Notes under the pieces: model-generated | Seen by the model: the letters and a program-made list of their open reading frames with translations, nothing else | The model's database searches: none | What the model was told of the DNA's origin: nothing | Position numbers and translations under genes: made by a program | Virus record (IMG/VR): IMGVR_UViG_3300042898_002099 | DNA length: 64,000 bases | Direction: 5' to 3' (one strand) | DNA from: a virus | Shown here: positions 14,741 to 40,454 of the stretch, one piece after another | Layout: each line of letters opens with the position of its first letter | Numbering within the stretch: position 1 is the stretch's first letter

Positions 14741-14749
14741 TCTTTATTA

Positions 14750-15439
14750 TTATTTCCTGTCACCAAACAGTTGCAATAGGTTAATAAACAAGTTAATGAA
14801 GTCCATGTATAAAGTTAATGCTCCACGCACCTCTGCGCTATCGCTAGTTTCTATACTAAGTTCTTCACGAATCTTTTGTGTGTCGTATGCTGTTAGTCCC
14901 AAAAATATAATAATTGCCAATGCGCTAATAACCATTTGCATTACAGTGCTACCGATAAAAATATTGACTATACTAGCAATAATGATAGCAATTAATCCAA
15001 CAAACATAAATTTGCCAAGACTATCTAGACTTTGTTTAGTAAAGTAACCATAGCCACTCATAACACCGAATAGGATTGCTGCACCCATAAAAGCACTGAC
15101 AATACTACCCATAGTAAACACAGCAAAGATCATTGCAAAGCTCAATCCCATTAATGCCGCAAAACCATGTAGACATAACTGGGCTACACCTTTGCTAGGA
15201 TTTCTACCTAACACATAGCTAACACCAAAGATCGCTACCAGAGGTGAAAAGATTACAATCCACTTTAGTATACCCGTAAAAAAGAATTGTAGTAACTCTG
15301 GGTTAGTGCCCACAAAATAACTAATAAACATTGATACCATAACAGCAAGACTCATATGTCCGTAGACACGGCCCATTGCTGAGTTAATTTCACTTGCAGA
15401 ACGATATGTCATTCCGCCTGTATAGTTTGTTCCAAACAT
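14750..15439 (-). CDS. Bax inhibitor-1/YccA family membrane protein
   Basis: About 7 TM helices; FLGLTAYDTQKIR and GALTLYMDFINLF signatures. Confidence 0.92.
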   Translation of the reverse strand: MFGTNYTGGMTYRSASEINSAMGRVYGHMSLAVMVSMFISYFVGTNPELLQFFFTGILKWIVIFSPLVAIFGVSYVLGRNPSKGVAQLCLHGFAALMGLSFAMIFAVFTMGSIVSAFMGAAILFGVMSGYGYFTKQSLDSLGKFMFVGLIAIIIASIVNIFIGSTVMQMVISALAIIIFLGLTAYDTQKIREELSIETSDSAEVRGALTLYMDFINLFINLLQLFGDRK

Positions 15440-16044: not shown

Positions 16045-16521
16045 TTATTCAAATTCGTTATCTTCTCTGTGACCGACTCTCATTGCCATGTTTGCATCTG
16101 TTTCTCGTACTTCAACCTTACTGCACCAGACTCGTTCTGCTTCGGCTTTGCCATACATTGGGAGAAAGATAGTATTAATATACTCATAAAGAAAATCAGA
16201 AATCCCCTCACAACCTGTCTTCTCCACTTCTGTAATTTTTGCTAATTTTAATCTGCCTAATTCAAGCAAATGTTCTCGCATAGGATCATCCTGTGCGACT
16301 AATAGAGTATGGTCAAACCAATCCTCTAATTTTTCTTTTAATGGTTTAAGTCCACCAAAATCCATACACCAATTACGAGCATCCAATGTGTCACATTCAA
16401 ATTCAAAATGAAATGATAGTGCATATCCATGAACTAGATTACAATGACTATCAGCTCTCCATTGTCTGTATGCTACGGGACCTATTTGTTTATATGTTTT
16501 TGTTGAGATATATTTTGCCAT
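16045..16521 (-). CDS. queD: 6-carboxy-5,6,7,8-tetrahydropterin synthase
   Basis: SHCNLVHGY (CxxxHG), MDFGGLK, FDHTLL, GCE, VEVRET. Confidence 0.9.
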   Translation of the reverse strand: MAKYISTKTYKQIGPVAYRQWRADSHCNLVHGYALSFHFEFECDTLDARNWCMDFGGLKPLKEKLEDWFDHTLLVAQDDPMREHLLELGRLKLAKITEVEKTGCEGISDFLYEYINTIFLPMYGKAEAERVWCSKVEVRETDANMAMRVGHREDNEFE

Positions 16522-16590: not shown

Positions 16591-17641
16591 TTGTCATTTT
16601 CTGAAAAGCCCTAGAATCATACCAATCGAATAAATCTTCGATAATTTTATCTAAGTTACATTCCGGCTTCCAAGAAGTTTCAGATTGTAATTTTTCAGAA
16701 TTTGCAATTAATATTGCAGGATCACCATTACGGCGAGGTGCAACATTGAAAACAATGCCGTTGTTAATTCTTTCTTGATCTATTAAAAAGGTTTCTGTTT
16801 TAACAAATACTTCAAGATTAGAATATCCTTTGACTGAACCTATATTATATATGCCTTTGATATTATTCTCAATAGCTAAGATGTGTGCTTTGGCAATATC
16901 CGTGACATGAATATAATCTCTGATACAGGTTTTATCTTTTGTCGGATAATCTATACCATACATTGTAAATGGTTCATCGTTTAGCGCTGCTTCAAAAATT
17001 TTAGCAAAAATATGAGTAGCATTTGGTTCTTGACCGTGTGTGCCACCTTCAACCGCACCGCAAGCATTGAAATATCTAAATGATACATACTGCAAACCAT
17101 ATGCCTTATTGTGCCAATTAAGCATCATCTCAGTCATTAGTTTGGATTCACCATATGGCGATATTGGATTAGTATCTGATTTTTCAAATAGCATATGACT
17201 TTTTTCAGGGTCGCCATACACCGAAGCACTGCTACTAAAAATGAATTTTGTACCTGGAGAATATTTGGTAATATATTCCAAATACTTTGCAGTTTTAGCA
17301 ACATTATTTTCATAATATTCTATTGGGTCAGACATGCTTGGGCCAACCAAACTAGTACCAGCACAATGAATAATTGCATCAGGTATATTATCAGCTATAC
17401 AGTTTAATGATTTAGTATCAATAAAATCGCATTGAATGAATTCATCATAGTATGATTCTAAGTGAGAACTAACCCGCCTGTCGACACCAACTACTCTATA
17501 GCCTTGTTTCTTAAGTTCAATACAAATAGCGCCACCGATATAACCGGCGGCACCTGTGACTATAACTGTTTTAATATTTTGCTGCTGGGACATGATCTCT
17601 GTAATCCTTACCACCTCGCCACCAATGTGATCCTTCGGCAT
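16562..17641 (-). CDS. galE: UDP-glucose 4-epimerase (probable start near 17593)
   Basis: VTGAAGYIG, IHCAGTSLVGPS, FSSSASVYG, SPYGESK (YxxxK), RYFNACGA, CIRDYIHV. Confidence 0.9.
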   Translation of the reverse strand: MPKDHIGGEVVRITEIMSQQQNIKTVIVTGAAGYIGGAICIELKKQGYRVVGVDRRVSSHLESYYDEFIQCDFIDTKSLNCIADNIPDAIIHCAGTSLVGPSMSDPIEYYENNVAKTAKYLEYITKYSPGTKFIFSSSASVYGDPEKSHMLFEKSDTNPISPYGESKLMTEMMLNWHNKAYGLQYVSFRYFNACGAVEGGTHGQEPNATHIFAKIFEAALNDEPFTMYGIDYPTKDKTCIRDYIHVTDIAKAHILAIENNIKGIYNIGSVKGYSNLEVFVKTETFLIDQERINNGIVFNVAPRRNGDPAILIANSEKLQSETSWKPECNLDKIIEDLFDWYDSRAFQKMTKRSPAFTPL

Positions 17642-18749
17642 TGAACATAATATCTATACAACGATCAATAGTATTAGATGTCCAAGTAGCTAATTTGCCT
17701 AGATTGGCTCGCTCTTGAAACAATAAACTATTTAGTTTAAACACTGCATCATCTTGTGACCATGGAATGTAAAGACATTCACGATCATTGGCAAATGTTT
17801 CAGGGAATGATCTATACGCAGGGTACAAACAATTTGTACCTAGTGCATCTGCTTCTGATGCCGTATTACTTACCCAATCTTGTAATGCACAATTAAATAA
17901 TACTCGGGAATCACCTAACAACTCATAGTATTCATTCTTTTTAAGATTCTCATAGATTTTAAAATTATGAGTCTTTTCCAATGCTCGCGCGCGATCCAAA
18001 TACTTTTGATTGTTACTACGTAAAGGACCGCCTGATAAAACAGCAAATTCTACAGCAGGATTAAGTGTATGGTATCTTTCAATTAGATCCATAAAGAAAT
18101 CAGGTTGTTTTTCTTGATCGAATCTTGCCGCAAACACTACACGAAGTTTGCGCTCATTAAAAGGAATCTGTTTCACTACACGACTGCGAACTTCATCTTT
18201 GTCAAATGCCAAACCAGAGATATTAAAGATTGGTGCTTCCCAACCTGCAATTTTCATATGAGCAACCATCTCTTCGTTAGATGCAAGTACACCTGTAACA
18301 AATTGGTCTGTCATTTTCTCATATAGACCCATCCACTTCTGCATATCCCATACGTGAACGAAATCATCTGGATCAATAGATTGTGCAAGGCAACGAACAA
18401 ATATTCGAGGCTGATACTCATAACTTACTTGATCCATAATATAAGGCAATGCCTCAATACCAGGAGTAAACATATCTTCAAAAAAGATTGTATCTTCGTA
18501 TGTAATTTCACCAGCTTTCATCTTCTTAATAAGATTAGCCATCTGTGTCAGCGAATAATAACTACGACCGTGTGCATCAAGCACTTGTCCTGTTACAATT
18601 GCTTTAGAGTCATCTAAAATATCACCATGAATTACTTCATAATCAATACCTCGGCGCTTAAATGCTGCCTCACTCCAATGCTGAAGCTGCAAGGTATAAC
18701 GACCTTCATACGGCTCCAAACCCATATAATATAATTTTCCCATTATCAA
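17571..18749 (-). CDS. GT-B fold glycosyltransferase (GT4-like)
   Basis: VVFAARFDQEKQPDFF, YYELLGDSRVLFNCALQD...EADALG..LYP...FPE. Confidence 0.75.
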   Translation of the reverse strand: MIMGKLYYMGLEPYEGRYTLQLQHWSEAAFKRRGIDYEVIHGDILDDSKAIVTGQVLDAHGRSYYSLTQMANLIKKMKAGEITYEDTIFFEDMFTPGIEALPYIMDQVSYEYQPRIFVRCLAQSIDPDDFVHVWDMQKWMGLYEKMTDQFVTGVLASNEEMVAHMKIAGWEAPIFNISGLAFDKDEVRSRVVKQIPFNERKLRVVFAARFDQEKQPDFFMDLIERYHTLNPAVEFAVLSGGPLRSNNQKYLDRARALEKTHNFKIYENLKKNEYYELLGDSRVLFNCALQDWVSNTASEADALGTNCLYPAYRSFPETFANDRECLYIPWSQDDAVFKLNSLLFQERANLGKLATWTSNTIDRCIDIMFNAEGSHWWRGGKDYRDHVPAAKY

Positions 18750-19144
18750 TCCCTAGTAAAATACATTCTGCAACCGTTTTCGCCATCTTCTGAGACTTCG
18801 ATTACATAATCTCGATCAGGCCACTGAGCAATTAATTTTGCGTGTAAATCTTTAGCAATCATCTCACAAGATTTGTGATTCAATTGCAATGTGTCTTCAT
18901 TATACCAGCGTTCAATAGTACGCTTTGCTTGTATAAATTCAACATCCCTATCATCATGAAACACTTCCATCTCAACACGGAAATGAAAAATGTGTCTATG
19001 CAAGTCTGCAAGGAAAGACACATCTAGCCAATGATCATCTGGTTTACCAAAACGCTTTGTTGCTAATTTCGGATCCGTTGCCGCTGCTGGGTAACGATGA
19101 ATACCTTCCTTCTGAAAGGTAACAAAAATAAAACTCTTGTTCAT
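18746..19144 (-). CDS. QueD-paralogous T-fold protein, DpdL-like
   Basis: EGIH, LADLHRHIFHF (LxxxHRHxF), RDVEFI, SCEMIA, IEVSEDGENG; directly downstream of dpdA. Confidence 0.65.
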   Translation of the reverse strand: MNKSFIFVTFQKEGIHRYPAAATDPKLATKRFGKPDDHWLDVSFLADLHRHIFHFRVEMEVFHDDRDVEFIQAKRTIERWYNEDTLQLNHKSCEMIAKDLHAKLIAQWPDRDYVIEVSEDGENGCRMYFTRD

Positions 19145-20430
19145 GCAAATAAGTCCTCAAGTGTTGATGGGGCTACCTCGCTAACAGGTTCTGAATCCAT
19201 AAACCTGCCAACGTTCTTTTCCCAATAAAGAAAATCATCAGTGTTTTTCACATCGAATAATGTTGAAAATTCGTTCTCACAATTTTTATCTCTGCAGAAT
19301 CTTAAAAATTCTTCTTTAGAATTCATAAGTGTACTAACATCTAATGTGAAGTTATGCACATTAGTTAAGATAAATGCAAGTCTGGCTCTCATAACATCTA
19401 CAAATTTGCCGCCATTTTCAAGATATTCGCCTACAGAAATATTCATTAATTTATGATAATTTTCTGCGGTATATTCTGTGCCACACACAGCATTAATTTC
19501 TGCAACAACTGTTCTATAGATATTTGAAAATGGTCTTCCCATTTTTACAGATGAGCCACCATAATCACCGGGATTCTTTTTCTTGCTATGTGAAAAATAA
19601 AACAATCCATTATCTAAAGACATAGAATGTGTTGTCGAATCATATGAAATATCAATGCCATCATATAAGCCAGTTTGACTAAACAACAAATATGGCAAGA
19701 TACGTTTTAATGCACCTACACCCAATACGTGTAGATGAAATGGTCTTTCAAATGGTACAGCATTAACAAAGAATGCTCGCTTAACATCTTCAAGTGGTCC
19801 CATACCTAGAGCAGCTGATCCCATAGCTACACCACCAATACGATGATGTAATTCTTTTGGAATCTCATCAAGCATTGCCTCGCCCCATAACTTATAAGTT
19901 TCTTGACCTGAACCTTGAATAATAACAAACGGTCTGCAAGAACTTTTCATATCATCAAATCTTTGAATTTGTTCTAATACATTTTTACCAGTTTGTCTAG
20001 CATAACTTTCAAAATTTTCCATGTCAACATATCTACGCTTAGTATCAATTTTAGATGACACACCAGATGCAGATGTAGACTTAACCGGAATCTCATCAAA
20101 TGCCATTCCTATGTCTGCGTATGTTGCTTGATTCTCAAACACCTTATTACGAGTCTCAGATGTGTTTGGTAAACCTCTAGTAATAATCTGCAAACCTCCA
20201 GAGTCGGCATGAATGTTTTTAATTACTGGTCTAAATTTTTGTAATTTTGCACCAAAGTTCTTTTCAGTAAAACCATTATACAATAAAGAAAACTGATGAT
20301 TGTTTTTATTGTGAACAGTTCTGGAAATCATGTCTTTAATCATTTCCAATGTCTCAGGGTCATTACATTGTTCTGCACCCAACCTCAGATAAGCGGGACC
20401 TGATATAACATATTCTAATTGTCTGCTCAT
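19141..20430 (-). CDS. dpdA: TGT-family DNA 7-deazaguanine transglycosylase (DpdA-like)
   Basis: TGT motifs HADSGGLQ, MAFDEIP, IIQG, GGVAMG, HLHVLGVG, SYDSTT; clustered with folE/queD/queE. Confidence 0.82.
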   Translation of the reverse strand: MSRQLEYVISGPAYLRLGAEQCNDPETLEMIKDMISRTVHNKNNHQFSLLYNGFTEKNFGAKLQKFRPVIKNIHADSGGLQIITRGLPNTSETRNKVFENQATYADIGMAFDEIPVKSTSASGVSSKIDTKRRYVDMENFESYARQTGKNVLEQIQRFDDMKSSCRPFVIIQGSGQETYKLWGEAMLDEIPKELHHRIGGVAMGSAALGMGPLEDVKRAFFVNAVPFERPFHLHVLGVGALKRILPYLLFSQTGLYDGIDISYDSTTHSMSLDNGLFYFSHSKKKNPGDYGGSSVKMGRPFSNIYRTVVAEINAVCGTEYTAENYHKLMNISVGEYLENGGKFVDVMRARLAFILTNVHNFTLDVSTLMNSKEEFLRFCRDKNCENEFSTLFDVKNTDDFLYWEKNVGRFMDSEPVSEVAPSTLEDLFA

Positions 20431-21329
20431 AAAAATAAACTTTCTAATGAAGACTTTTGTGTGTCTCCAGCTTTTTCTGTTAAATTAACTGTAATCTGTT
20501 TTAGCTTAGGATTCTTTTGCTTGAACATTCTCATCCAAGTTCCTTTTGCTACTGTATCTTGTTTAGGCAAGTTCCATATCTCTGATATAAATTTTAGACC
20601 AGATGCTGTTCTTTCCCATCTTTGTTCTGCAGTCATTCCGGTTGACCAAGTAGACTTTTCGGGAGTTGCTTGTTCTTCTTTAAAAATAATGTTATTACAG
20701 ATAAAAACACCTAGACCGTTTTGAATAAATTCAATACCAAAATTTTGATCTTCACACGGAATTAGAGTACCATCCGAATTGACAAACTTCTCATCAAAAT
20801 ATATTTCTTTATTGTGATGTTTCTTAATATTCTTAATAATTAGAATACTTGTTTTTGTCATAAATGTTGGCCTGAATCTCCATCTAATTTTATCACCTTC
20901 AGCGTTTTCTGTCAAGTCCTTTGTGAAAGGCTGATTAGCAGGATTGACAGGTAAAAACATATCTACGTCTGCAAGATTCTCAAATGGAATATTTCTGAAT
21001 GTTTGAACAAAGGTATCATTCGCCCCATACTTTTGACCAGTATAAAGGTATGTGTCGTTGTCAGCAAAAATGGCATAATCCTCATCCGAATTGTAAAATT
21101 CTTTTAAGAGGACATTTCTTGCATCACCTGGAGTTAATACTTTACCTTGGTGTTTGATATATTGAACACCATCTTCGTATTGTTCTTCTTTGTAATTTTG
21201 AGCAAACACTACAGGCTGAAGATCATTTTTCTTAACCCAATCTAATTGCCGTTTGTGTATTTCTGCACGTCTAGCATTTGTGCTATCAGGGCCGAACCAT
21301 GATATAATGTAGCATTTCTCAAACTTCAT
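20427..21329 (-). CDS. GT-A fold glycosyltransferase, possibly DNA-base glycosyltransferase
   Basis: ARNVLL, YAIFADND (DxD), CEDQNFG; ATGA-coupled to dpdA; C-terminal SLESLFL. Confidence 0.62.
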   Translation of the reverse strand: MKFEKCYIISWFGPDSTNARRAEIHKRQLDWVKKNDLQPVVFAQNYKEEQYEDGVQYIKHQGKVLTPGDARNVLLKEFYNSDEDYAIFADNDTYLYTGQKYGANDTFVQTFRNIPFENLADVDMFLPVNPANQPFTKDLTENAEGDKIRWRFRPTFMTKTSILIIKNIKKHHNKEIYFDEKFVNSDGTLIPCEDQNFGIEFIQNGLGVFICNNIIFKEEQATPEKSTWSTGMTAEQRWERTASGLKFISEIWNLPKQDTVAKGTWMRMFKQKNPKLKQITVNLTEKAGDTQKSSLESLFL

Positions 21330-21839
21330 TTACTCACCTAGCATTTTAATCAAGTGTTTTGTCTGATGCATAGCATCGTCAAGAGCATTATGGTAAACGC
21401 CTTCTCGTTCGTCAGCAGGAATCCAATTGAATAATGCCTTTACTGTACGATAACATCTATCATCCCAGCATTTCCATGGTGGTTCTCTGTCTGTAATAAA
21501 GTAGGCATTTGATAAAATTGTATTATCAAAGACAGCACCGTTGCCCCAAACAGGCAAACTCTTAGGACCAAACCATTCCTCAAAATCATCTAATGCTTGA
21601 TTCAAAGGAATGTTATTACGAGTAAGTTCTCGCAAAGCTTCTTTATTTTGCTCCGACCACCATTTGATAGTTTCTTTAGAAACATGCATACCTACATCTT
21701 TGCAGGTTTTAAGATCAATGGTGCAATAGAAGGTATCTAAAATTTCTTTACCTTCAAATTTTACTGCACCAATTGAACAGATAGCGGCATTTGATCTTGT
21801 TGACATTGTCTCCAAGTCAACCATTACATTAACTGTCAT
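21330..21839 (-). CDS. DEDDh 3'-5' exonuclease (DexA/Rv2179c-like)
   Basis: VMVDLETMST, WGNGAVFD, HNALDDA. Confidence 0.85.
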   Translation of the reverse strand: MTVNVMVDLETMSTRSNAAICSIGAVKFEGKEILDTFYCTIDLKTCKDVGMHVSKETIKWWSEQNKEALRELTRNNIPLNQALDDFEEWFGPKSLPVWGNGAVFDNTILSNAYFITDREPPWKCWDDRCYRTVKALFNWIPADEREGVYHNALDDAMHQTKHLIKMLGE

Positions 21840-22516
21840 TTACATCCTTGTCTTGCAATCTGATAAAATTCATTTCTAACTTCTGGGTGATTTTTAAATC
21901 CGCCACCTAAACGAACTGTTACTGTAGAACTACCTGTATCTTCAACGCCTCTAGATTTGACACAATAGTGTTGTGCATCAATTAATACAGCAACATCTTC
22001 AGTATCAAGAATATATTGTAGTGTGTGGAAAATTTGTTCTGTTAGTCGTTCTTGAATCTGTGGTCGCTTGCTGAAATATTCTACAATACGATTAATTTTA
22101 GATAGACCAAGAACTTTGTTCTTCGGAACATAAGCAACAGTTGCTAAACCATCGATAACAACAAAGTGATGTTCACAATTAGATTGAACATTAACATTGC
22201 GCTCAACAACCATTTCATTATATTTCATTTTGTTGTCAACGGTTGTGCATTTAGGGAATGCATCATAATCGAGTCCCCAAAAGATTTCGTTAACATACAT
22301 TTTAGCAACACGTTTAGGAGTCTCATTTAGACTATCGTCATCTAAGTCGAGACCTAATACCTGCATAATATGTGCAAAGCTTTTTTCAATTTCCGCAATT
22401 TTATCTTTGCGATCCATTGATATTTTAAATGTTGGTGTTTCCACTCCCATTTTAACCAAATGTTCGTGAACTTGTTGTCCCAATAATGGGTCTGTTTTTG
22501 TCTTGTTATATGACAT
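21836..22516 (-). CDS. folE: GTP cyclohydrolase I
   Basis: ETPKRVAKMY, SNCEHHF, GLSKINRIV, RPQIQERLT, HYCVKSRGV. Confidence 0.96.
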   Translation of the reverse strand: MSYNKTKTDPLLGQQVHEHLVKMGVETPTFKISMDRKDKIAEIEKSFAHIMQVLGLDLDDDSLNETPKRVAKMYVNEIFWGLDYDAFPKCTTVDNKMKYNEMVVERNVNVQSNCEHHFVVIDGLATVAYVPKNKVLGLSKINRIVEYFSKRPQIQERLTEQIFHTLQYILDTEDVAVLIDAQHYCVKSRGVEDTGSSTVTVRLGGGFKNHPEVRNEFYQIARQGCK

Positions 22517-22584: not shown

Positions 22585-23445
22585 TTAAGTGCCCCATGCA
22601 TTTTTAAATAATGGGATTTGTAATCTGTCGGAATATCTCCAACCTTTTTTCATTGCCAATTCTGCAACACTACGATTGTTCAACGAATACATTTCTTCTG
22701 TACCACCACAAGGCATAATATAAACAGCGCCACCGAAACCAGATTTGCGATATTCATTTACTGCTTGTTCTGCTTCTTCAGCATCTTCTTTAGTTGCAAC
22801 TACAAATTTAAGATATGTATTACCTAACAATTGATATTGTTGAACAACTTCTGGTCTGATTGCATCTTCCCATTTTTCACCGCTAATTGATAATTTAGGG
22901 GATACTGAAAATGTTATATTACCATAGTCTCGACCAAACCTTGTCCACTCCTGAAATAAGTATTCATCAAACTCATCAGTTATAAGTTGTGTACCATTAG
23001 TTTCAAAAGTAAGTTCTTTTAGAGCTTGCATCTTAGGATGTTCTAAAAGATCAGGATAAGCTTTTTGCCAACCCAATAAAGGCTCACCGCCTGTAATTAC
23101 AAGATGTTCGTCTCGCCATTCCTTGTACGGTAACGTATCAACAATAGCATCGGCAATCGCATCAGTAGAAAGAACGGGAGACAAATGCTTAAAACGAGGA
23201 TCCCAAGAAGCATAACTATCACAACCCGTAGACACCAAAGGTAACGATTTATATTCTGTATACTTAGAAGGGTCAACATTGTTTGCTTCATTGCTAAGTT
23301 CTCCTTTAGGCATACCAAAACCTGCACATTTAAAGTTACAACCAAATGTTCTTAAAAACACTGAGGGTACGCCCATATAGCGACCTTCACCCTGTATGCT
23401 ATAAAATAATTCTGCAATCTTAATTTTGCTCATATTCACTTTCAA
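22585..23445 (-). CDS. queE: 7-carboxy-7-deazaguanine synthase, radical SAM
   Basis: ELFYSIQGEG, FLRTFGCNFKC...GCDS, VITGGEPLL, FETNGT, SVSPKL. Confidence 0.92.
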   Translation of the reverse strand: MKVNMSKIKIAELFYSIQGEGRYMGVPSVFLRTFGCNFKCAGFGMPKGELSNEANNVDPSKYTEYKSLPLVSTGCDSYASWDPRFKHLSPVLSTDAIADAIVDTLPYKEWRDEHLVITGGEPLLGWQKAYPDLLEHPKMQALKELTFETNGTQLITDEFDEYLFQEWTRFGRDYGNITFSVSPKLSISGEKWEDAIRPEVVQQYQLLGNTYLKFVVATKEDAEEAEQAVNEYRKSGFGGAVYIMPCGGTEEMYSLNNRSVAELAMKKGWRYSDRLQIPLFKNAWGT

Positions 23446-23715: not shown

Positions 23716-23744
23716 ATTATATGACATTTAGTCAGTAATGTCAA
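23716..23744 (-). promoter_or_regulatory. consensus sigma70-type promoter, probably giving a leaderless mazG-queE transcript
   Basis: TTGACA-ttactgactaaatgtca(17 nt)-TATAAT-tcgtt-ATG. Confidence 0.82.
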
Positions 23745-24363
23745 TTATGGGATTATCCTTTTCAGACGCTTTCTTTTTACGAGCTTTTGTCTCGGATGCC
23801 GTTTCTCGTTTTTCGGGATCGATTGTGTCTAATTGCTTTTTCAAATAATCAATCAAATGGCGGCCTGCTTCCGAATCTTCTGCATTTTGAATAATAGAAT
23901 CAATATCCATATTCTCCATGAGTTTATATTTCGTTGCCTGTTGTTTCTTTTCCTTTTGAATTCTGCGAATAAAGGCAAAGTAAATAATTTGAGTATAATA
24001 GGCAAATGGATTAGATGATTTTGTGGGATCAAATTTTGCAACAGCAGTTAGGCAATTTTCAATGCCATCCGAAACCATATCATCTCTAAATGTGTAATTG
24101 ATAAAATTAGATTTATATGATAAATGTGTTGCAATTTTAATAAAGCATTCGCCTATATATCGAGGTACTCGAGTCGGTTCCTCTCCTGCAGCTTTGGCTT
24201 TGTCTAATGCCTCTTTATATTCTATAAGAGCAGCAAGAAACTGTTTGTTGTTTACATAATGGGCAGGGGCCTTGGCGGGGATTTCTTCTTTAATGAAGGA
24301 TTCTTCTATTTCCTCGATCAATTCTAATATCTCGCTCTCCGGCGTCGTCGTTGTTTTCGTCAT
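23728..24363 (-). CDS. gp55: late transcription sigma factor
   Basis: HYVNNKQF, YIGECFIKIATHLS, FINYTFRDDMVSDGIENC, NPFAYYTQIIYFAFIRRIQKEKKQ. Confidence 0.95.
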   Translation of the reverse strand: MTKTTTTPESEILELIEEIEESFIKEEIPAKAPAHYVNNKQFLAALIEYKEALDKAKAAGEEPTRVPRYIGECFIKIATHLSYKSNFINYTFRDDMVSDGIENCLTAVAKFDPTKSSNPFAYYTQIIYFAFIRRIQKEKKQQATKYKLMENMDIDSIIQNAEDSEAGRHLIDYLKKQLDTIDPEKRETASETKARKKKASEKDNPIIDITD

Positions 24364-24772
24364 TCACATCTCCTAAAGATTGTTCAAATTTTTCAAATAA
24401 TTCTTCAATAATTTCTTCATCTGTTTCTTCAGCGTCATCGCTTTCAGTATACAGCTCGTCTTTGTTGTCTCTATACATTATATACTCTAAGTAGTTATTT
24501 TTCAAGCTTTCTTTGATGTTTGTTGCAACTACAATTTGATGTACTGGGATTTCATATACGTTTTCCTCTGAAAAACTAAATAAAGGAAACAATACGTATG
24601 ATTCTATTAACACACCATCTCTAGGCAATCGTAACATATTTAAGATTACTGGGTCTGTCACACTAATGATGCGCTTGCCTGTCAATTGTTTACAATCATC
24701 TTTCGTTTTACAGATTATGCTATCGCCAGATGTGAGGCGCAAAAATTTATAATTTACTTTTTCTTCTTCCAT
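24290..24772 (-). CDS. conserved hypothetical protein between uvsW and gp55 (Sm-like fold possible)
   Basis: LRLTSGDSIIC N-terminus, acidic tail; syntenic position in T4-like phages. Confidence 0.6.
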   Translation of the reverse strand: MEEEKVNYKFLRLTSGDSIICKTKDDCKQLTGKRIISVTDPVILNMLRLPRDGVLIESYVLFPLFSFSEENVYEIPVHQIVVATNIKESLKNNYLEYIMYRDNKDELYTESDDAEETDEEIIEELFEKFEQSLGDVNDENNDDAGERDIRIDRGNRRILH

Positions 24773-26253
24773 TATAATGATACCTTTACTAATTTATAGT
24801 TAAAATGCTCATCATTATAAATTTTTATTCGTTCAATCATATGCAATAATGTATAATTCTTTTTAGATTTCCATGTTAAATCATCTGCAATGTCATATAG
24901 TTTACACGATGTCTTACTTTCACTTGTTCTCAAGCCTCGACCAATAGATTGTAAGTTTCTTACTCTCGATTTTGAGGGTGAAGCAAAAATAATATTATGC
25001 AGGTTTTTAATATTTATTCCTGTAGAGAAAGTACCATAGCTAGCAACAATAATTGCATCAGTCTCTGTTTCGGTAATTCTACGAATATCTTCACGCTGCT
25101 CAGTATCAGTTCCACCATAAACAAAAAACACTTTTCGATTCACCGCTTTTTCTTCAATCATATCTTTTAAAACTTTGCCATGTTTTTCAACATACTGAAA
25201 TAACACTAACGTATTGCTCGTCTGTGTTATTGCAAGATTTCTAATAAATTTATTTCTAGCTTCATGCTGAACTAAAAAATCCATTTCATCTTGATATGAT
25301 TTACCTTTTTGGGCTTTTTTAATTTCATCAGAATATTCTAAAATGATATTAAAAATTTCTAAGTCTGCAAGTGTTTTATCGTTAATTAATTTTTTGGTTG
25401 TTGTGACTTTATAAACTGGCCCAAACAATCCTTCTAGAACTAATTTATGGGTATGAGTACCATCCAATGTCCCTGTCGTCCCAACTCTATATGGAGTAGT
25501 AGTACATTTATTTAGTATACTTGTTAATGACTTTGCTTTAAATAAATGAGCTTCGTCACCATAAATTGCTTTAAAATCTGCAAAGAACTGTTTGGGCAAT
25601 TTATAAATTGATTGCCAAGTACTAATGACTATATCATATTCATTAGACTTTTCGTGCCCGCCATAAATACGATGACAATGTTCTGAGGCTTTCCAGCCAT
25701 TTAAACAAGAATAATCTTGAAAATCCGAATACATCTGTTCAACTAAAGAAGTCGTTGGAACAAGTATTAATTGTCTACGACCAACTCGTTCATGCCATCT
25801 GATTAAACAGTAAATGATAAGAGATTTACCTGACCCTGTTGGGGACAATAATAATCTCCTGCCATCTTTAATTGCTTGAAATACTGCATCAAATTGATAA
25901 TCCCTAATTTGTATAGGTTTACCCTTTGAGCCAACATTTAGATCTTCGCAAAACTTTCTAACTATGTCGTAAGTAACTGCATCGTTTTCTTCTACATAAT
26001 TAGAATAATCAATAACATAATCTCGTTCTTCGCAGAATCGTTCTAGGTAGCTTTTTAGTCCTACATATAATTCTTGTGTGAACATAGAGTAAAGTCGTAC
26101 TTTACCATCCCACATACGAGATTTATAAAGAGGATGAAACTTAGCACCAGGAACATCAAAAGAAAAATGATCGTTTAACTCTTGTCCTATTGAAGGTTCA
26201 CATCTTACTTTTAAATATGCTTCGTCTTTTTTCGATAATTCGATATCTGCCAT
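24772..26253 (-). CDS. uvsW: RNA-DNA/DNA-DNA helicase
   Basis: RDYQ, SPTGSGKS, VPTTSLVEQM, GDEAH, GTTGT, LQSIGRGLR. Confidence 0.96.
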   Translation of the reverse strand: MADIELSKKDEAYLKVRCEPSIGQELNDHFSFDVPGAKFHPLYKSRMWDGKVRLYSMFTQELYVGLKSYLERFCEERDYVIDYSNYVEENDAVTYDIVRKFCEDLNVGSKGKPIQIRDYQFDAVFQAIKDGRRLLLSPTGSGKSLIIYCLIRWHERVGRRQLILVPTTSLVEQMYSDFQDYSCLNGWKASEHCHRIYGGHEKSNEYDIVISTWQSIYKLPKQFFADFKAIYGDEAHLFKAKSLTSILNKCTTTPYRVGTTGTLDGTHTHKLVLEGLFGPVYKVTTTKKLINDKTLADLEIFNIILEYSDEIKKAQKGKSYQDEMDFLVQHEARNKFIRNLAITQTSNTLVLFQYVEKHGKVLKDMIEEKAVNRKVFFVYGGTDTEQREDIRRITETETDAIIVASYGTFSTGINIKNLHNIIFASPSKSRVRNLQSIGRGLRTSESKTSCKLYDIADDLTWKSKKNYTLLHMIERIKIYNDEHFNYKLVKVSL

Positions 26254-37543: not shown

Positions 37544-37594
37544 CTTCTTCTCCTTGATAATTTTATAGATAGCTCTATAATATGATTTTCTATT

Positions 37595-37602
37595 TATTTA
37601 TA
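37595..37602 (-). promoter_or_regulatory. T4-type late promoter for gp18
   Basis: TATAAATA on the minus strand. Confidence 0.82.
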
Positions 37603-37613
37603 AGTATGTTCAT

Positions 37614-39299
37614 TTAGACATTTTCAAGGAATTTTCTTTGCATTTCGTGAATCTCATCTGGAGATTTGGATGATGCTGTAAACCATATTTCGTCAGTTGT
37701 TATTACTGGAGCTTCGTGTTCTGGAACTCCCCTATCAACAATACCAAACGGAGTCAGATTTTCTTCAATCTGTTTAAATTGTTCTTCGTACAGGGCTTTT
37801 CTTAAATTGCTATCAGTTAGGTCTTTAAAAAATGATTCGTTAGTTGCCCATGCAAACAGTACCAGAGTCATAACCAAATCGTCATGATACCCCTCGTCTG
37901 CTTTGTGTGTTCCCCGAACTTCAATAAACGTAGAAATTTCGTTTATAATATCTGGATCATGAATTAGTAATTTTGTGCCCTCAACTAAACTCTTGAACGA
38001 TGTACATCCCAATCGTTTAACTTGTTTAGTTGTTCTTACACCAAGGGTTGCCCCATTTGAAAATCCGCCAGACAGATACTGTCCCGATTTACTGTTATTT
38101 CCGACAAAGAATACATTTTCATATTCTAAGTCCATGTATAATGTATCAGCCACTTGTTGACCGTTATCATTAATCTCAACTAAGCAATATGCTTTGTTGT
38201 AATCTTTTGCTACTTTATATATTATATTTGGAAAAAGCAAAGGACTTATCTTGTTGTTTCTATACTTGGCAACTACGGAATACGGGTATGCTGTGATATC
38301 CAATACTGTAAATGCTGAGTAATCTCCCCCTACTCCTCTGGATGTATCAGCTACAAGCATATACACCTTGTCCTCTTCTGGTTCCACAAATACATCTAAA
38401 CCATCTTTACTATAGATATAGGGCTTAACCGACATTCTACCAATTGTGTCTGGATTGACTAGGGTATTAGAAGATCCAAGGAATCTACATAAAACTTCTT
38501 GGTTGAACTTGAGTTCGCCCAGCATAGCTTTTTGTTCTGCGGCCCATTTATCATCTCTACCAGGTATTTTGCTATATGGAATAAACAATGGAACAAAGCC
38601 ATTCAATTCTTGTTCAGCCTCATTCCAGAATTTCCAGAAGTGATTGTAACCAAGCGGTGTAGATGTTAATAAAATCTTTGTGGTATTACCAGCAGAAATT
38701 GTTGGATAAACAGATGTGAAGAAATCTTCTGCAACATTATTAGGAATAATTGCTGCCTCGTCAATGTACAACCAGTTTACAGATTTACCTCGAATACCGG
38801 ATGAGCTTGTTGCTGCTGTGAATACTTTAGAACCATTCTCAAGTTCAATGTCACCTTTGTTAAATGTCTTTACACCTTGTTGCATCCATATTGGAAGCAT
38901 CTCATACATTAGTTCGTATCTAGAAAGTACTTCTCGAGCAGCTGAAGATTTATTTGCTAGGATGGCGACTGTCTTATTTTCTTGAAATAACGTATACCAA
39001 AGAATACAGGCGGCGGCAGTAATTGTCTTGCCTTGTTGTCGACCTTCCATCAGTATAACTTTACGATTATTAAGTATAATGTTTACTTTTTCTTTTTGAC
39101 AATCGTATAATTTAAAAGGGATTAGACCTTTATCCAATGAAACAATTTTACAATAGTTCTCAATAAAGTAAATTGGATCTTGACTGCATTTTATAATTTC
39201 TTTAACCTGTTCCGAAGAATATGATATGACCGTACCAATCTGTTTTAGATTGGGGTTACCATTGTAGGATAATTTTTTATTGGTCGATGATGTTGTCAT
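37614..39299 (-). CDS. gp17: terminase large subunit
   Basis: YNGNPNLK, RQQGKT, YIDEAA, STPLGYNHF, ADTSRGVGGDYSAF, HDDLVM. Confidence 0.98.
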   Translation of the reverse strand: MTTSSTNKKLSYNGNPNLKQIGTVISYSSEQVKEIIKCSQDPIYFIENYCKIVSLDKGLIPFKLYDCQKEKVNIILNNRKVILMEGRQQGKTITAAACILWYTLFQENKTVAILANKSSAAREVLSRYELMYEMLPIWMQQGVKTFNKGDIELENGSKVFTAATSSSGIRGKSVNWLYIDEAAIIPNNVAEDFFTSVYPTISAGNTTKILLTSTPLGYNHFWKFWNEAEQELNGFVPLFIPYSKIPGRDDKWAAEQKAMLGELKFNQEVLCRFLGSSNTLVNPDTIGRMSVKPYIYSKDGLDVFVEPEEDKVYMLVADTSRGVGGDYSAFTVLDITAYPYSVVAKYRNNKISPLLFPNIIYKVAKDYNKAYCLVEINDNGQQVADTLYMDLEYENVFFVGNNSKSGQYLSGGFSNGATLGVRTTKQVKRLGCTSFKSLVEGTKLLIHDPDIINEISTFIEVRGTHKADEGYHDDLVMTLVLFAWATNESFFKDLTDSNLRKALYEEQFKQIEENLTPFGIVDRGVPEHEAPVITTDEIWFTASSKSPDEIHEMQRKFLENV

Positions 39300-39702
39300 C
39301 TTTTTTACCTAACAATTTCATTAGTTCGCTAGTAGAACCAGCAAATACTACATTATTTTGAGTACCAATTTGAACTGGATCGTCAGCTTGCAATTCTTTA
39401 ACTTGTTTCTGTAATCCTAATAAATCTTTTGAGACATCAGATAAGGTTTTAATAAATTGCCCTGTTACCTCATAACTTCTAGGATGCTCAGAATTTTTAG
39501 ATAAACTAATTAATTCTTCCAAAGTATCCTCACCTTTTAGCAACAATTTTCTCATTGTTTGTCTGGCCAATTGGTAATCATCTTCCTGATCCATTGCTTT
39601 TGTTGCATTTAAATTTTCAGGAATTGAGGGTAAATTTGTATTTTCAGTTTCATCCATTGGATTTATATTAAAAATATCATTCAAATTTTCTATATTTTTC
39701 AT
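39277..39702 (-). CDS. gp16: terminase small subunit
   Basis: DDYQLAR, SEHPRSYEV, NNVVFAGSTSELMKLL. Confidence 0.92.
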   Translation of the reverse strand: MKNIENLNDIFNINPMDETENTNLPSIPENLNATKAMDQEDDYQLARQTMRKLLLKGEDTLEELISLSKNSEHPRSYEVTGQFIKTLSDVSKDLLGLQKQVKELQADDPVQIGTQNNVVFAGSTSELMKLLGKKDDNIIDQ

Positions 39703-39704
39703 AT

Positions 39705-40454
39705 TTAAAAGTCTTCAAAGTTTTCAATATATCCAAACGAATCAGTTACATTTGCAGTTACCGGATCAGGTTGTACTGTTATTATTTGTTGCTGAGATGT
39801 AAGTTCCGCATCATTAAAAATATTAGATGTTGTCTTTTTAATGATACCTTGTTTATTAACAGGACCATAAAAATTAAGTTTCATCACAAAACTTAATGTC
39901 CATATAATAGATCTTCTTGTAGTTAAGTCGCCCTCATAATCATCTTCGAATCCTATAGAATTCAAAATTATAGGCAAATCGTTTTTAATGTTAAGTTGCG
40001 GTACAGCTTTAATAGTTAAATTATAATCAGGATTAAAATAAGGTAGAATTTGTTCTATTACTTGTAATGCATCATCTTGATTTTTTGCATATACATATAA
40101 AATTACATTTATATTATACGGGGTAGGAGCATATTGTGCGTTTGCTGCAGTTGAACTATTAATTGTTCTTGATTGTTGTATTGGACTTATTTTTCTGTTA
40201 GGATCATAGTCCAACGAAATCATTTCAAATCCCATTCTAGGCAATAGAACTTGTACGTTTTGAACGTCTACATTAGGTTGTTGTCTTATCTTAGTTAAGA
40301 ATTTTTGTTTAGGTGAATATGACAGCGGTACTTTTTGTAGTTGCACTACATTGCCATCAGCATCTACTCTTTGTATGGTAATATTATTAAACATATTACC
40401 AAACGCAACGATTGCTTTACGTATTGTTCCCCAATAAAAACGTTGGTCTAACAT
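39705..40454 (-). CDS. gp15: tail sheath stabiliser / tail terminator
   Basis: FY..TIRK.IVAFG.MFN, VPLSYSPKQKF, LPRMGFE, EQILPYFNP. Confidence 0.94.
   Translation of the reverse strand: MLDQRFYWGTIRKAIVAFGNMFNNITIQRVDADGNVVQLQKVPLSYSPKQKFLTKIRQQPNVDVQNVQVLLPRMGFEMISLDYDPNRKISPIQQSRTINSSTAANAQYAPTPYNINVILYVYAKNQDDALQVIEQILPYFNPDYNLTIKAVPQLNIKNDLPIILNSIGFEDDYEGDLTTRRSIIWTLSFVMKLNFYGPVNKQGIIKKTTSNIFNDAELTSQQQIITVQPDPVTANVTDSFGYIENFEDF

Follow-up and report, generated by a model that had tools for sequence, protein, structure and literature searches.

The PCNA and beta clamps serve as toolbelts that bring post-replicative enzymes, among them Dnmt1, UNG2, FEN1 and ligase I, to new DNA. In phage T4, the polymerase gp43 ends in EKASLDFLFG, which binds the sliding clamp gp45, and an internal LDFLF loop of the T4 ligase binds the same clamp, as seen in a crystal structure and with a dissociation constant of ~11 uM, the phenylalanine of this motif (LDFLF) inserting into a gp45 pocket (PMC6212786). 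The ends of T4 gp43, gp33 and gp55 are highly similar and interchangeable (PMC2988020). The locus described here belongs to an uncultured T4-like phage and lies in a window of 64,000 nucleotides, bases 19037-83036 of a 119,376-bp IMG/VR contig (record IMGVR_UViG_3300042898_002099; completeness estimate 69%), in which a DpdA2-like DNA guanine transglycosylase and the adjoining GT-A-fold glycosyltransferase both end in a peptide resembling these clamp-binding motifs. With a probability of about three in four, the last 6-8 residues of the two enzymes are docking peptides for gp45, of the same kind as that of gp43, and this docking probably couples deazaguanine insertion and glycosylation to replication. 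Positions below are those of the window unless the contig is named.

The dpdA open reading frame (ORF; 19141..20430, minus strand, 429 amino acids (aa), phrog_10773) encodes a protein ending ...APSTLEDLFA, and that of the GT-A-fold protein (20427..21329, minus strand, 300 aa), which overlaps the start of dpdA by 4 nt (ATGA), one ending ...QKSSLESLFL; a reading made earlier from the sequence alone (the sequence-only reading) had reported both ends, and they were borne out. The proposed gp45-docking peptides are STLEDLFA (19144..19167, minus strand) in DpdA and SSLESLFL (20430..20453, minus strand) in the GT-A protein. Each hangs on a linker, described in the sequence-only reading as polar, which is poorly ordered in the structure models and variable in the alignments: ~residues 409-421 of DpdA (19168..19206, minus strand), judged from column entropy and the predicted local distance difference test (pLDDT), and ~residues 283-292 of the GT-A protein (20454..20483, minus strand), where the alignment is gapped and variable and pLDDT falls from 71 to 47. 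The DpdA model has a short helix at residues 424-428 and a pLDDT of 57 in its last block, and residues 290-300 of the GT-A model have a pLDDT below 50. The gp45-binding elements of T4 and RB69 gp43, T4 gp33 and gp55 and T4 ligase are built in the same way, with a short hydrophobic-acidic motif borne on a flexible linker of divergent sequence.

The gp43 gene of this phage (contig 2488-4980, minus strand, 830 aa) lies 35 kb from dpdA and the glycosyltransferase gene, and its product ends ...KPQATLEGLFG, in which ATLEGLFG aligns with the gp45-binding end ASLDFLFG of T4 gp43. The comparison with the phage's own polymerase, suggested in the sequence-only reading, thus returned the same motif. A gp45 clamp gene (contig 14745-15401), recognised by its Pfam family and by a profile match to 1B77 and 1CZD at E 1e-24 (its product is related to 1B77, 1B8H and 1CZD), is present on the same contig, as are the clamp loader genes gp44 and gp62. 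As in T4, then, the tail matches the polymerase's own end in a phage that encodes a gp45-family clamp and its gp44/62 loader; unlike in T4, the carriers are a base-exchange transglycosylase and glycosyltransferases.

[ST]L[DE]xLF has just three occurrences among all contig ORFs of at least 80 aa; it lies one residue from the end in each of gp43, DpdA and the GT-A protein. When C-termini were resampled 20,000 times from each protein's own composition across 142 likely genes, 0.0018 occurrences within two residues of the end were expected, against the three seen, and the three-fold occurrence is not chance. A looser search gave three extra matches, none of which is a tail. A 230-aa ORF with the end ..LEGLQNFFV encodes a baseplate hub protein (phrog_150). 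UvsW (24772-26253) has an internal LEGLFG at residue 273 that is identical to the polymerase tail; it aligns with a conserved helicase segment in the structure of T4 UvsW (2OCA) and is thus part of the fold, not a docking loop. The internal LEFLFG of a 255-aa cytidylyltransferase-cupin enzyme is likewise a fold element (FGxGG), and a homologue does not keep it as a motif.

Conservation in homologues, which the sequence-only reading had named as a check, was found for both enzymes. A tail of the form [ST]L[DE]x[LFM][FY] followed by 0-3 residues is kept in 110 of 120 DpdA homologues (99-39% identity), and two of the ten without it are truncated fragments. In a 59-sequence alignment L424 is invariant, and S/T423, E425, L427 and F428 are kept in 57, 52, 50 and 58 sequences, respectively. 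Column entropy is 0-0.9 bits at L424, E425, L427 and F428 versus 2-3 bits at most linker columns, the nine residues preceding the motif being variable, with S413, V416 and P421 as conserved exceptions in the linker. A strict or loose form of the pattern is present in 93 of 144 full-length DpdA representatives (50% identity clusters), and many of the remainder carry evident variants such as TLEGLI, SLEEFM and SLFDFL. The GT-A protein has 21 homologues, of which those with at least 45% identity (P0122-P0134) end (L/F)xx(L/F)F plus 0-3 residues; the gene of one homologue sits in the same folE-exonuclease-glycosyltransferase-dpdA-dpdL order. The DNA encoding the tail occurs in 29 variants for DpdA and 27 for the glycosyltransferase, with synonymous changes at every motif codon and the peptide unchanged. 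Since the tail codons drift synonymously, selection acts on the peptide.

The gene directly upstream of dpdA is tailed in 67 of 80 related IMG/VR loci, and its identity changes between them. In 61 of the loci this slot holds a ~450-457-aa tailed protein, and only the closest relatives, six loci, hold the 300-aa GT-A protein. The longer proteins end [ST]LE[SD]LF, and all four that were scanned against Pfam, one of them from phage BUCT-ZZ01, matched Glycos_transf_1, a GT-B family unrelated to the GT-A fold (examples of ~455 aa in relatives are L024:3637-5004, L058:3634-5004 and L002:4665-6008). The occurrence of GT-A and GT-B enzymes at one slot looks like non-orthologous replacement. The presence of the tail on both of these unrelated glycosyltransferase folds, at one and the same slot, speaks for its being needed for the function exercised at that position.

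Tails of DpdA and polymerase can also be compared across phages. All 16 related contigs that retain both an intact polymerase end and DpdA pair [ST]LEGLFx on the polymerase with [ST]LExLFx on DpdA. One relative, complete at 202,665 bp and with terminal repeats, has the core motif three times and no more, on its polymerase, DpdA and GT-B protein. In isolates the polymerase and DpdA ends are, respectively, SLDDLFE and TLDELFE in ACP17, SLESLFG and SLEELFG in BUDD, SLEDLFGW and SLDDLFG in Moby, and TLDDFFS and SLDSFFD in BUCT-ZZ01, whose GT-B protein ends SLEDFFND. In Vibrio phage nt-1 the polymerase ends TLESFFG and DpdA2 is tail-less; the adjoining ArcS (DUF5591, ORF388, L010:2498-3178), which converts DNA-borne 7-cyano-7-deazaguanine (preQ0) to 2'-deoxyarchaeosine (dG+) (PMC10516641), ends NSLANFF. 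In six of the seven lineages compared, the LF or FF form agrees with that of the polymerase. As the lineages are few and in part related, this covariation of tail and polymerase is suggestive at the level of these sequences.

Unusual DpdA tails (LFDFL, LEGLI and LW types) were also searched for polymerase pairing. Two of the queries had no relative in IMG/VR and the third had five matches, four on contigs of 4-11 kb and a distant fifth (30%) on a 158,136-bp record; no polymerase gene was found on the two distant DpdA contigs examined. In one relative (G018; L114-L116, contig 37586-40336) an in-frame TAA and an insert break gp43 into pieces, perhaps owing to an intron, an intein or a homing endonuclease.

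Neither DpdA nor the GT-A protein was recognised in Pfam and PDB sequence searches, and fold searches were therefore required to identify them. The DpdA model (mean pLDDT 90) has a tRNA-guanine transglycosylase fold matching the Z. mobilis enzyme with a Foldseek probability of 1.0, and the homologue alignment has H74, D76-S-G-G and G237-x-G239 as invariant residues. Over residues 5-274 the protein shares 35.6% identity with the experimentally characterised DpdA2 of phage nt-1 (ORF390 locus, YP_008125322). Given the predicted fold and this homology, the assignment of the 429-aa protein as a DpdA2-like DNA guanine transglycosylase holds. The 300-aa protein has zero Pfam or PHROG family matches; its model (pLDDT 89) is matched by TarP, TarS, PcManGT and GalNAc-T2 at a Foldseek probability of 1.0, and in its D90-N-D92 motif both aspartates are invariant and N91 is nearly so. 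Its membership of the glycosyltransferases holds by predicted fold and motif. We infer that DNA is the acceptor from the tail and the 4-nt overlap with dpdA. The sequence-only reading had taken the tail as support for a glycosyltransferase acting on DNA, which stands insofar as the enzyme would work at replicating DNA and falls short in that the tail does not identify the acceptor.

That both enzymes would ride the replication clamp, as the sequence-only reading proposed, is supported by the match to gp43, the conservation in homologues and the presence of gp45 and gp44/62 on the contig. Several observations weigh against it. The late sigma factor gp55 (23728-24363) ends ..DNPIIDITD and the co-activator gp33 (contig 94839-95105, equivalent to L006:11803-12069) ends ..RGKLPL, that is ..QNYFKKRGKLPL; both ends are kept in a complete relative and neither resembles the gp43 tail. 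Among the sequences compared, the polymerase-type tail is common to the putative modification enzymes and not to the late-transcription proteins, and the T4 rule of a shared tail is, to judge from these ends, not general in this lineage, where clamp coupling of late transcription may work differently. The earlier analogy with T4 was upheld for gp43 and failed for gp55 and gp33. Where the T4 LDFLF has F in the middle of the motif, the present tails have G, D or S, and since these are unlike the pocket-inserting T4 phenylalanine the binding mode may differ. In phage pf16 the pairing breaks down, the polymerase ending SLEDFFS and DpdA TLDLMCA. The one published precedent, an interaction of T4 alpha-glucosyltransferase with gp45 reported on the basis of in vitro experiments (Sommer 2004, cited in PMC6024577), could not be reproduced in vitro or in vivo in a preprint of 2025.

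A structural model of the docking, a further check named in the sequence-only reading, was also calculated, from the gp45 trimer (alignment A1) and DpdA residues 392-429 (alignment A2). This fold scored 0.60, against 0.01 for the best of three controls, with runs agreeing in at least 49% of contacts and a partner pLDDT of at least 40. In calibration, 58 of 80 solved complexes attained the mark, as did 2 of 110 mismatched pairs; only seven of those 80 did so with a score of 0.60 or below, a range that also includes both passing mismatches. The fold, which comes with no reported interface, lends docking only weak support. Solved structures of similar complexes exist (1B8H; the T4 ligase peptide), so the predictor may simply have remembered them, and the pass was given little weight.

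The points raised by gp55, gp33 and the middle residue would suit an alternative in which the T4 likeness is misleading and the shared tail binds another partner, such as a replisome protein, a chaperone or a protease adaptor, or mediates assembly of DpdA with the glycosyltransferase, given that we infer gp45 binding and that gp55 and gp33, the expected clamp clients, have other tails in this lineage. This alternative is nevertheless unlikely, as the polymerase tail is the counterpart of the T4 gp45-binding end by position and sequence, the motif is on no other protein in two genomes, and the fold of the DpdA tail with gp45, by its score against the controls, gives weak support to docking. It is about equally improbable that the tails do bind gp45 but act as regulators, competing with the polymerase or with late transcription for clamps and so pacing replication or late expression. 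A gp45 trimer offers only three pockets to many clients, and tails so closely like that of the polymerase would be expected to compete. The tail sits, though, on enzymes with a DNA substrate, survives the swap of glycosyltransferase family and is also found on the nt-1 ArcS, a distribution more in keeping with recruited catalysts than with competition alone. Finally, that the tails are functionless leftovers, either 3' gene ends copied from a neighbouring gene by recombination or by-products of the ribosome-binding site or start codon of an overlapping downstream gene, could draw on the fact that all three genes end xxA-TGA overlapping an ATG and on codons (TTA GAA AGT TTA TTT) identical in the GT-A and several GT-B tails, but it is largely refuted and very improbable, since synonymous variation at every motif codon with the peptide kept rules out ribosome-binding-site constraint or recent gene conversion as the cause, the tail is conserved in homologues below 50% identity and across differing gene neighbourhoods, and the polymerase gene is 35 kb distant.

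The genes around dpdA point to the chemistry that docking at gp45 would bring to the phage DNA. The two tailed enzymes are encoded with two tail-less ones in a minus-strand run (17571-21329) of GT-A, dpdA, a dpdL-like gene and a second glycosyltransferase gene, in which each ORF shares 4 nt (ATGA) with the next, an arrangement suggestive of translational coupling across all four genes. The DpdL-like T-fold protein (18746..19144, minus strand, 132 aa, phrog_17812) has the sequence LADLHRHIF, which fits the DpdL signature LxxxHRHxF (PMC10516641), and is proposed from this signature to be a 7-carboxy-7-deazaguanine decarboxylase. The second glycosyltransferase (17571..18749, minus strand, 392 aa) is of the GT-B type by Pfam (Glycos_transf_1) and ends ...HVPAAKY. 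Also on the minus strand are folE (21836..22516, Pfam E 2e-61), encoding GTP cyclohydrolase I, with which the deazaguanine pathway begins; a queE-like radical SAM gene (22585..23445, Pfam Radical_SAM and Fer4_12), whose counterparts in BUCT-ZZ01, ACP17 and Moby carry a QueE annotation; and queD of the PTPS family (16045..16521, Pfam E 3e-15). All of folE, queD, queE and the dpdL-like gene lie within 7 kb, in a cluster with dpdA, and Pfam places a GalE-like epimerase gene among the neighbours as well. Between folE and the glycosyltransferase gene lies an Rv2179c-like 3'-5' exonuclease gene (21330-21839), placed in the same way in a second lineage. A megablast search of the region against isolate phages gave zero matches.

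QueC was not found in the contig or in three complete relatives, and with the DpdL-like protein present the inserted base is predicted to be 7-deazaguanine or a derivative of its carboxy precursor. A thymidylate-synthase-family hydroxymethylase was likewise not found in the contig or in the three complete relatives, which makes a hydroxymethylcytosine acceptor of the T4 style unlikely for the glycosyltransferase. In a distant relative (L130:11589-13444) dpdA and dpdL are followed by genes for a cytidylyltransferase-cupin sugar-nucleotide enzyme and a 358-aa protein, and a homologue of that enzyme is encoded at contig 106868-107635 of the present phage. Sugar chemistry thus accompanies this DpdA family repeatedly.

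Under docking at gp45, each peptide would hang on a flexible linker of ~10-13 residues. The gp44/62 complex would load clamps at primer ends, and the clamps would stay on the fresh duplex, where they would carry or recruit DpdA, so that guanine would be swapped for the 7-deazaguanine base supplied by FolE, QueD, QueE and the DpdL-like protein, and would recruit the glycosyltransferase as well. Such tethering would raise the local concentration and processivity of the enzymes on replicating phage DNA and tie modification to replication, possibly with a gain in efficiency or in the self/non-self selectivity proposed in the sequence-only reading. A more elaborate version, in which DpdA and the glycosyltransferase form an assembly line on one gp45 trimer behind the fork, with one pocket each and the clamp as an obligatory cofactor, is tentative and more doubtful than docking itself. 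If true, it would explain how a post-replicative base-exchange enzyme could reach very high guanine replacement. It would also explain why dpdA and dpdL of ACP17, whose DpdA is tailed, yield no modified DNA when alone in E. coli.

That failure is on record: ACP17 dpdA with dpdL gave no 2'-deoxy-7-deazaguanine (dDG) in E. coli (Cui et al. 2023, PMC10516641), which a dependence on the phage clamp might explain. In the same work, insertion of 7-deazaguanines by DpdA is regarded as post-replicative, and both the complete replacement seen in some phages and the failure of some DpdA systems in E. coli are left open (PMC10516641). The present cluster is like the published phage DpdA2/ArcS systems (Hutinet 2019, PMC6884629; PMC10516641) in having FolE, QueD, QueE and a DpdL-like protein without QueC; unlike those pathways, of which glycosyltransferases are not part, it includes them. 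A term search of PMC6884629 and PMC10516641 found no mention of a sliding clamp or of a DpdA C-terminal motif, and in full-text literature searches no paper turned up that connects DpdA, or deazaguanine modification in phages, with a clamp or with a motif at the C-terminus. The T4 alpha-glucosyltransferase report, in the form in which it is cited, embodies the same idea, a phage DNA glycosyltransferase holding the clamp right behind the fork; that case was made in vitro, and the evidence here is a conserved polymerase-type peptide. In comparison with PCNA and beta-clamp clients (PMC9690074), the toolbelt idea is the same and the clamp family, the motif and the chemistry (base exchange and glycosylation) differ.

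On the present comparisons, DpdA and the glycosyltransferases are best read as new clients of the known T4-type clamp toolbelt. For the questions of complete replacement and of failure in E. coli, a polymerase-type tail shared by DpdA, the nt-1 ArcS and glycosyltransferases of two unrelated families offers a concrete, testable answer, that the clamp recruits modification enzymes to new phage DNA. If true, DNA hypermodification enzymes would join the gp45 toolbelt, for which the sole earlier claim of this kind, that for T4 alpha-glucosyltransferase, is now disputed. It would also provide an annotation rule for T4-like phages, by which a protein carrying the polymerase's own tail probably acts on replicating DNA, and reconstitutions of these pathways should then include gp45 and gp44/62.

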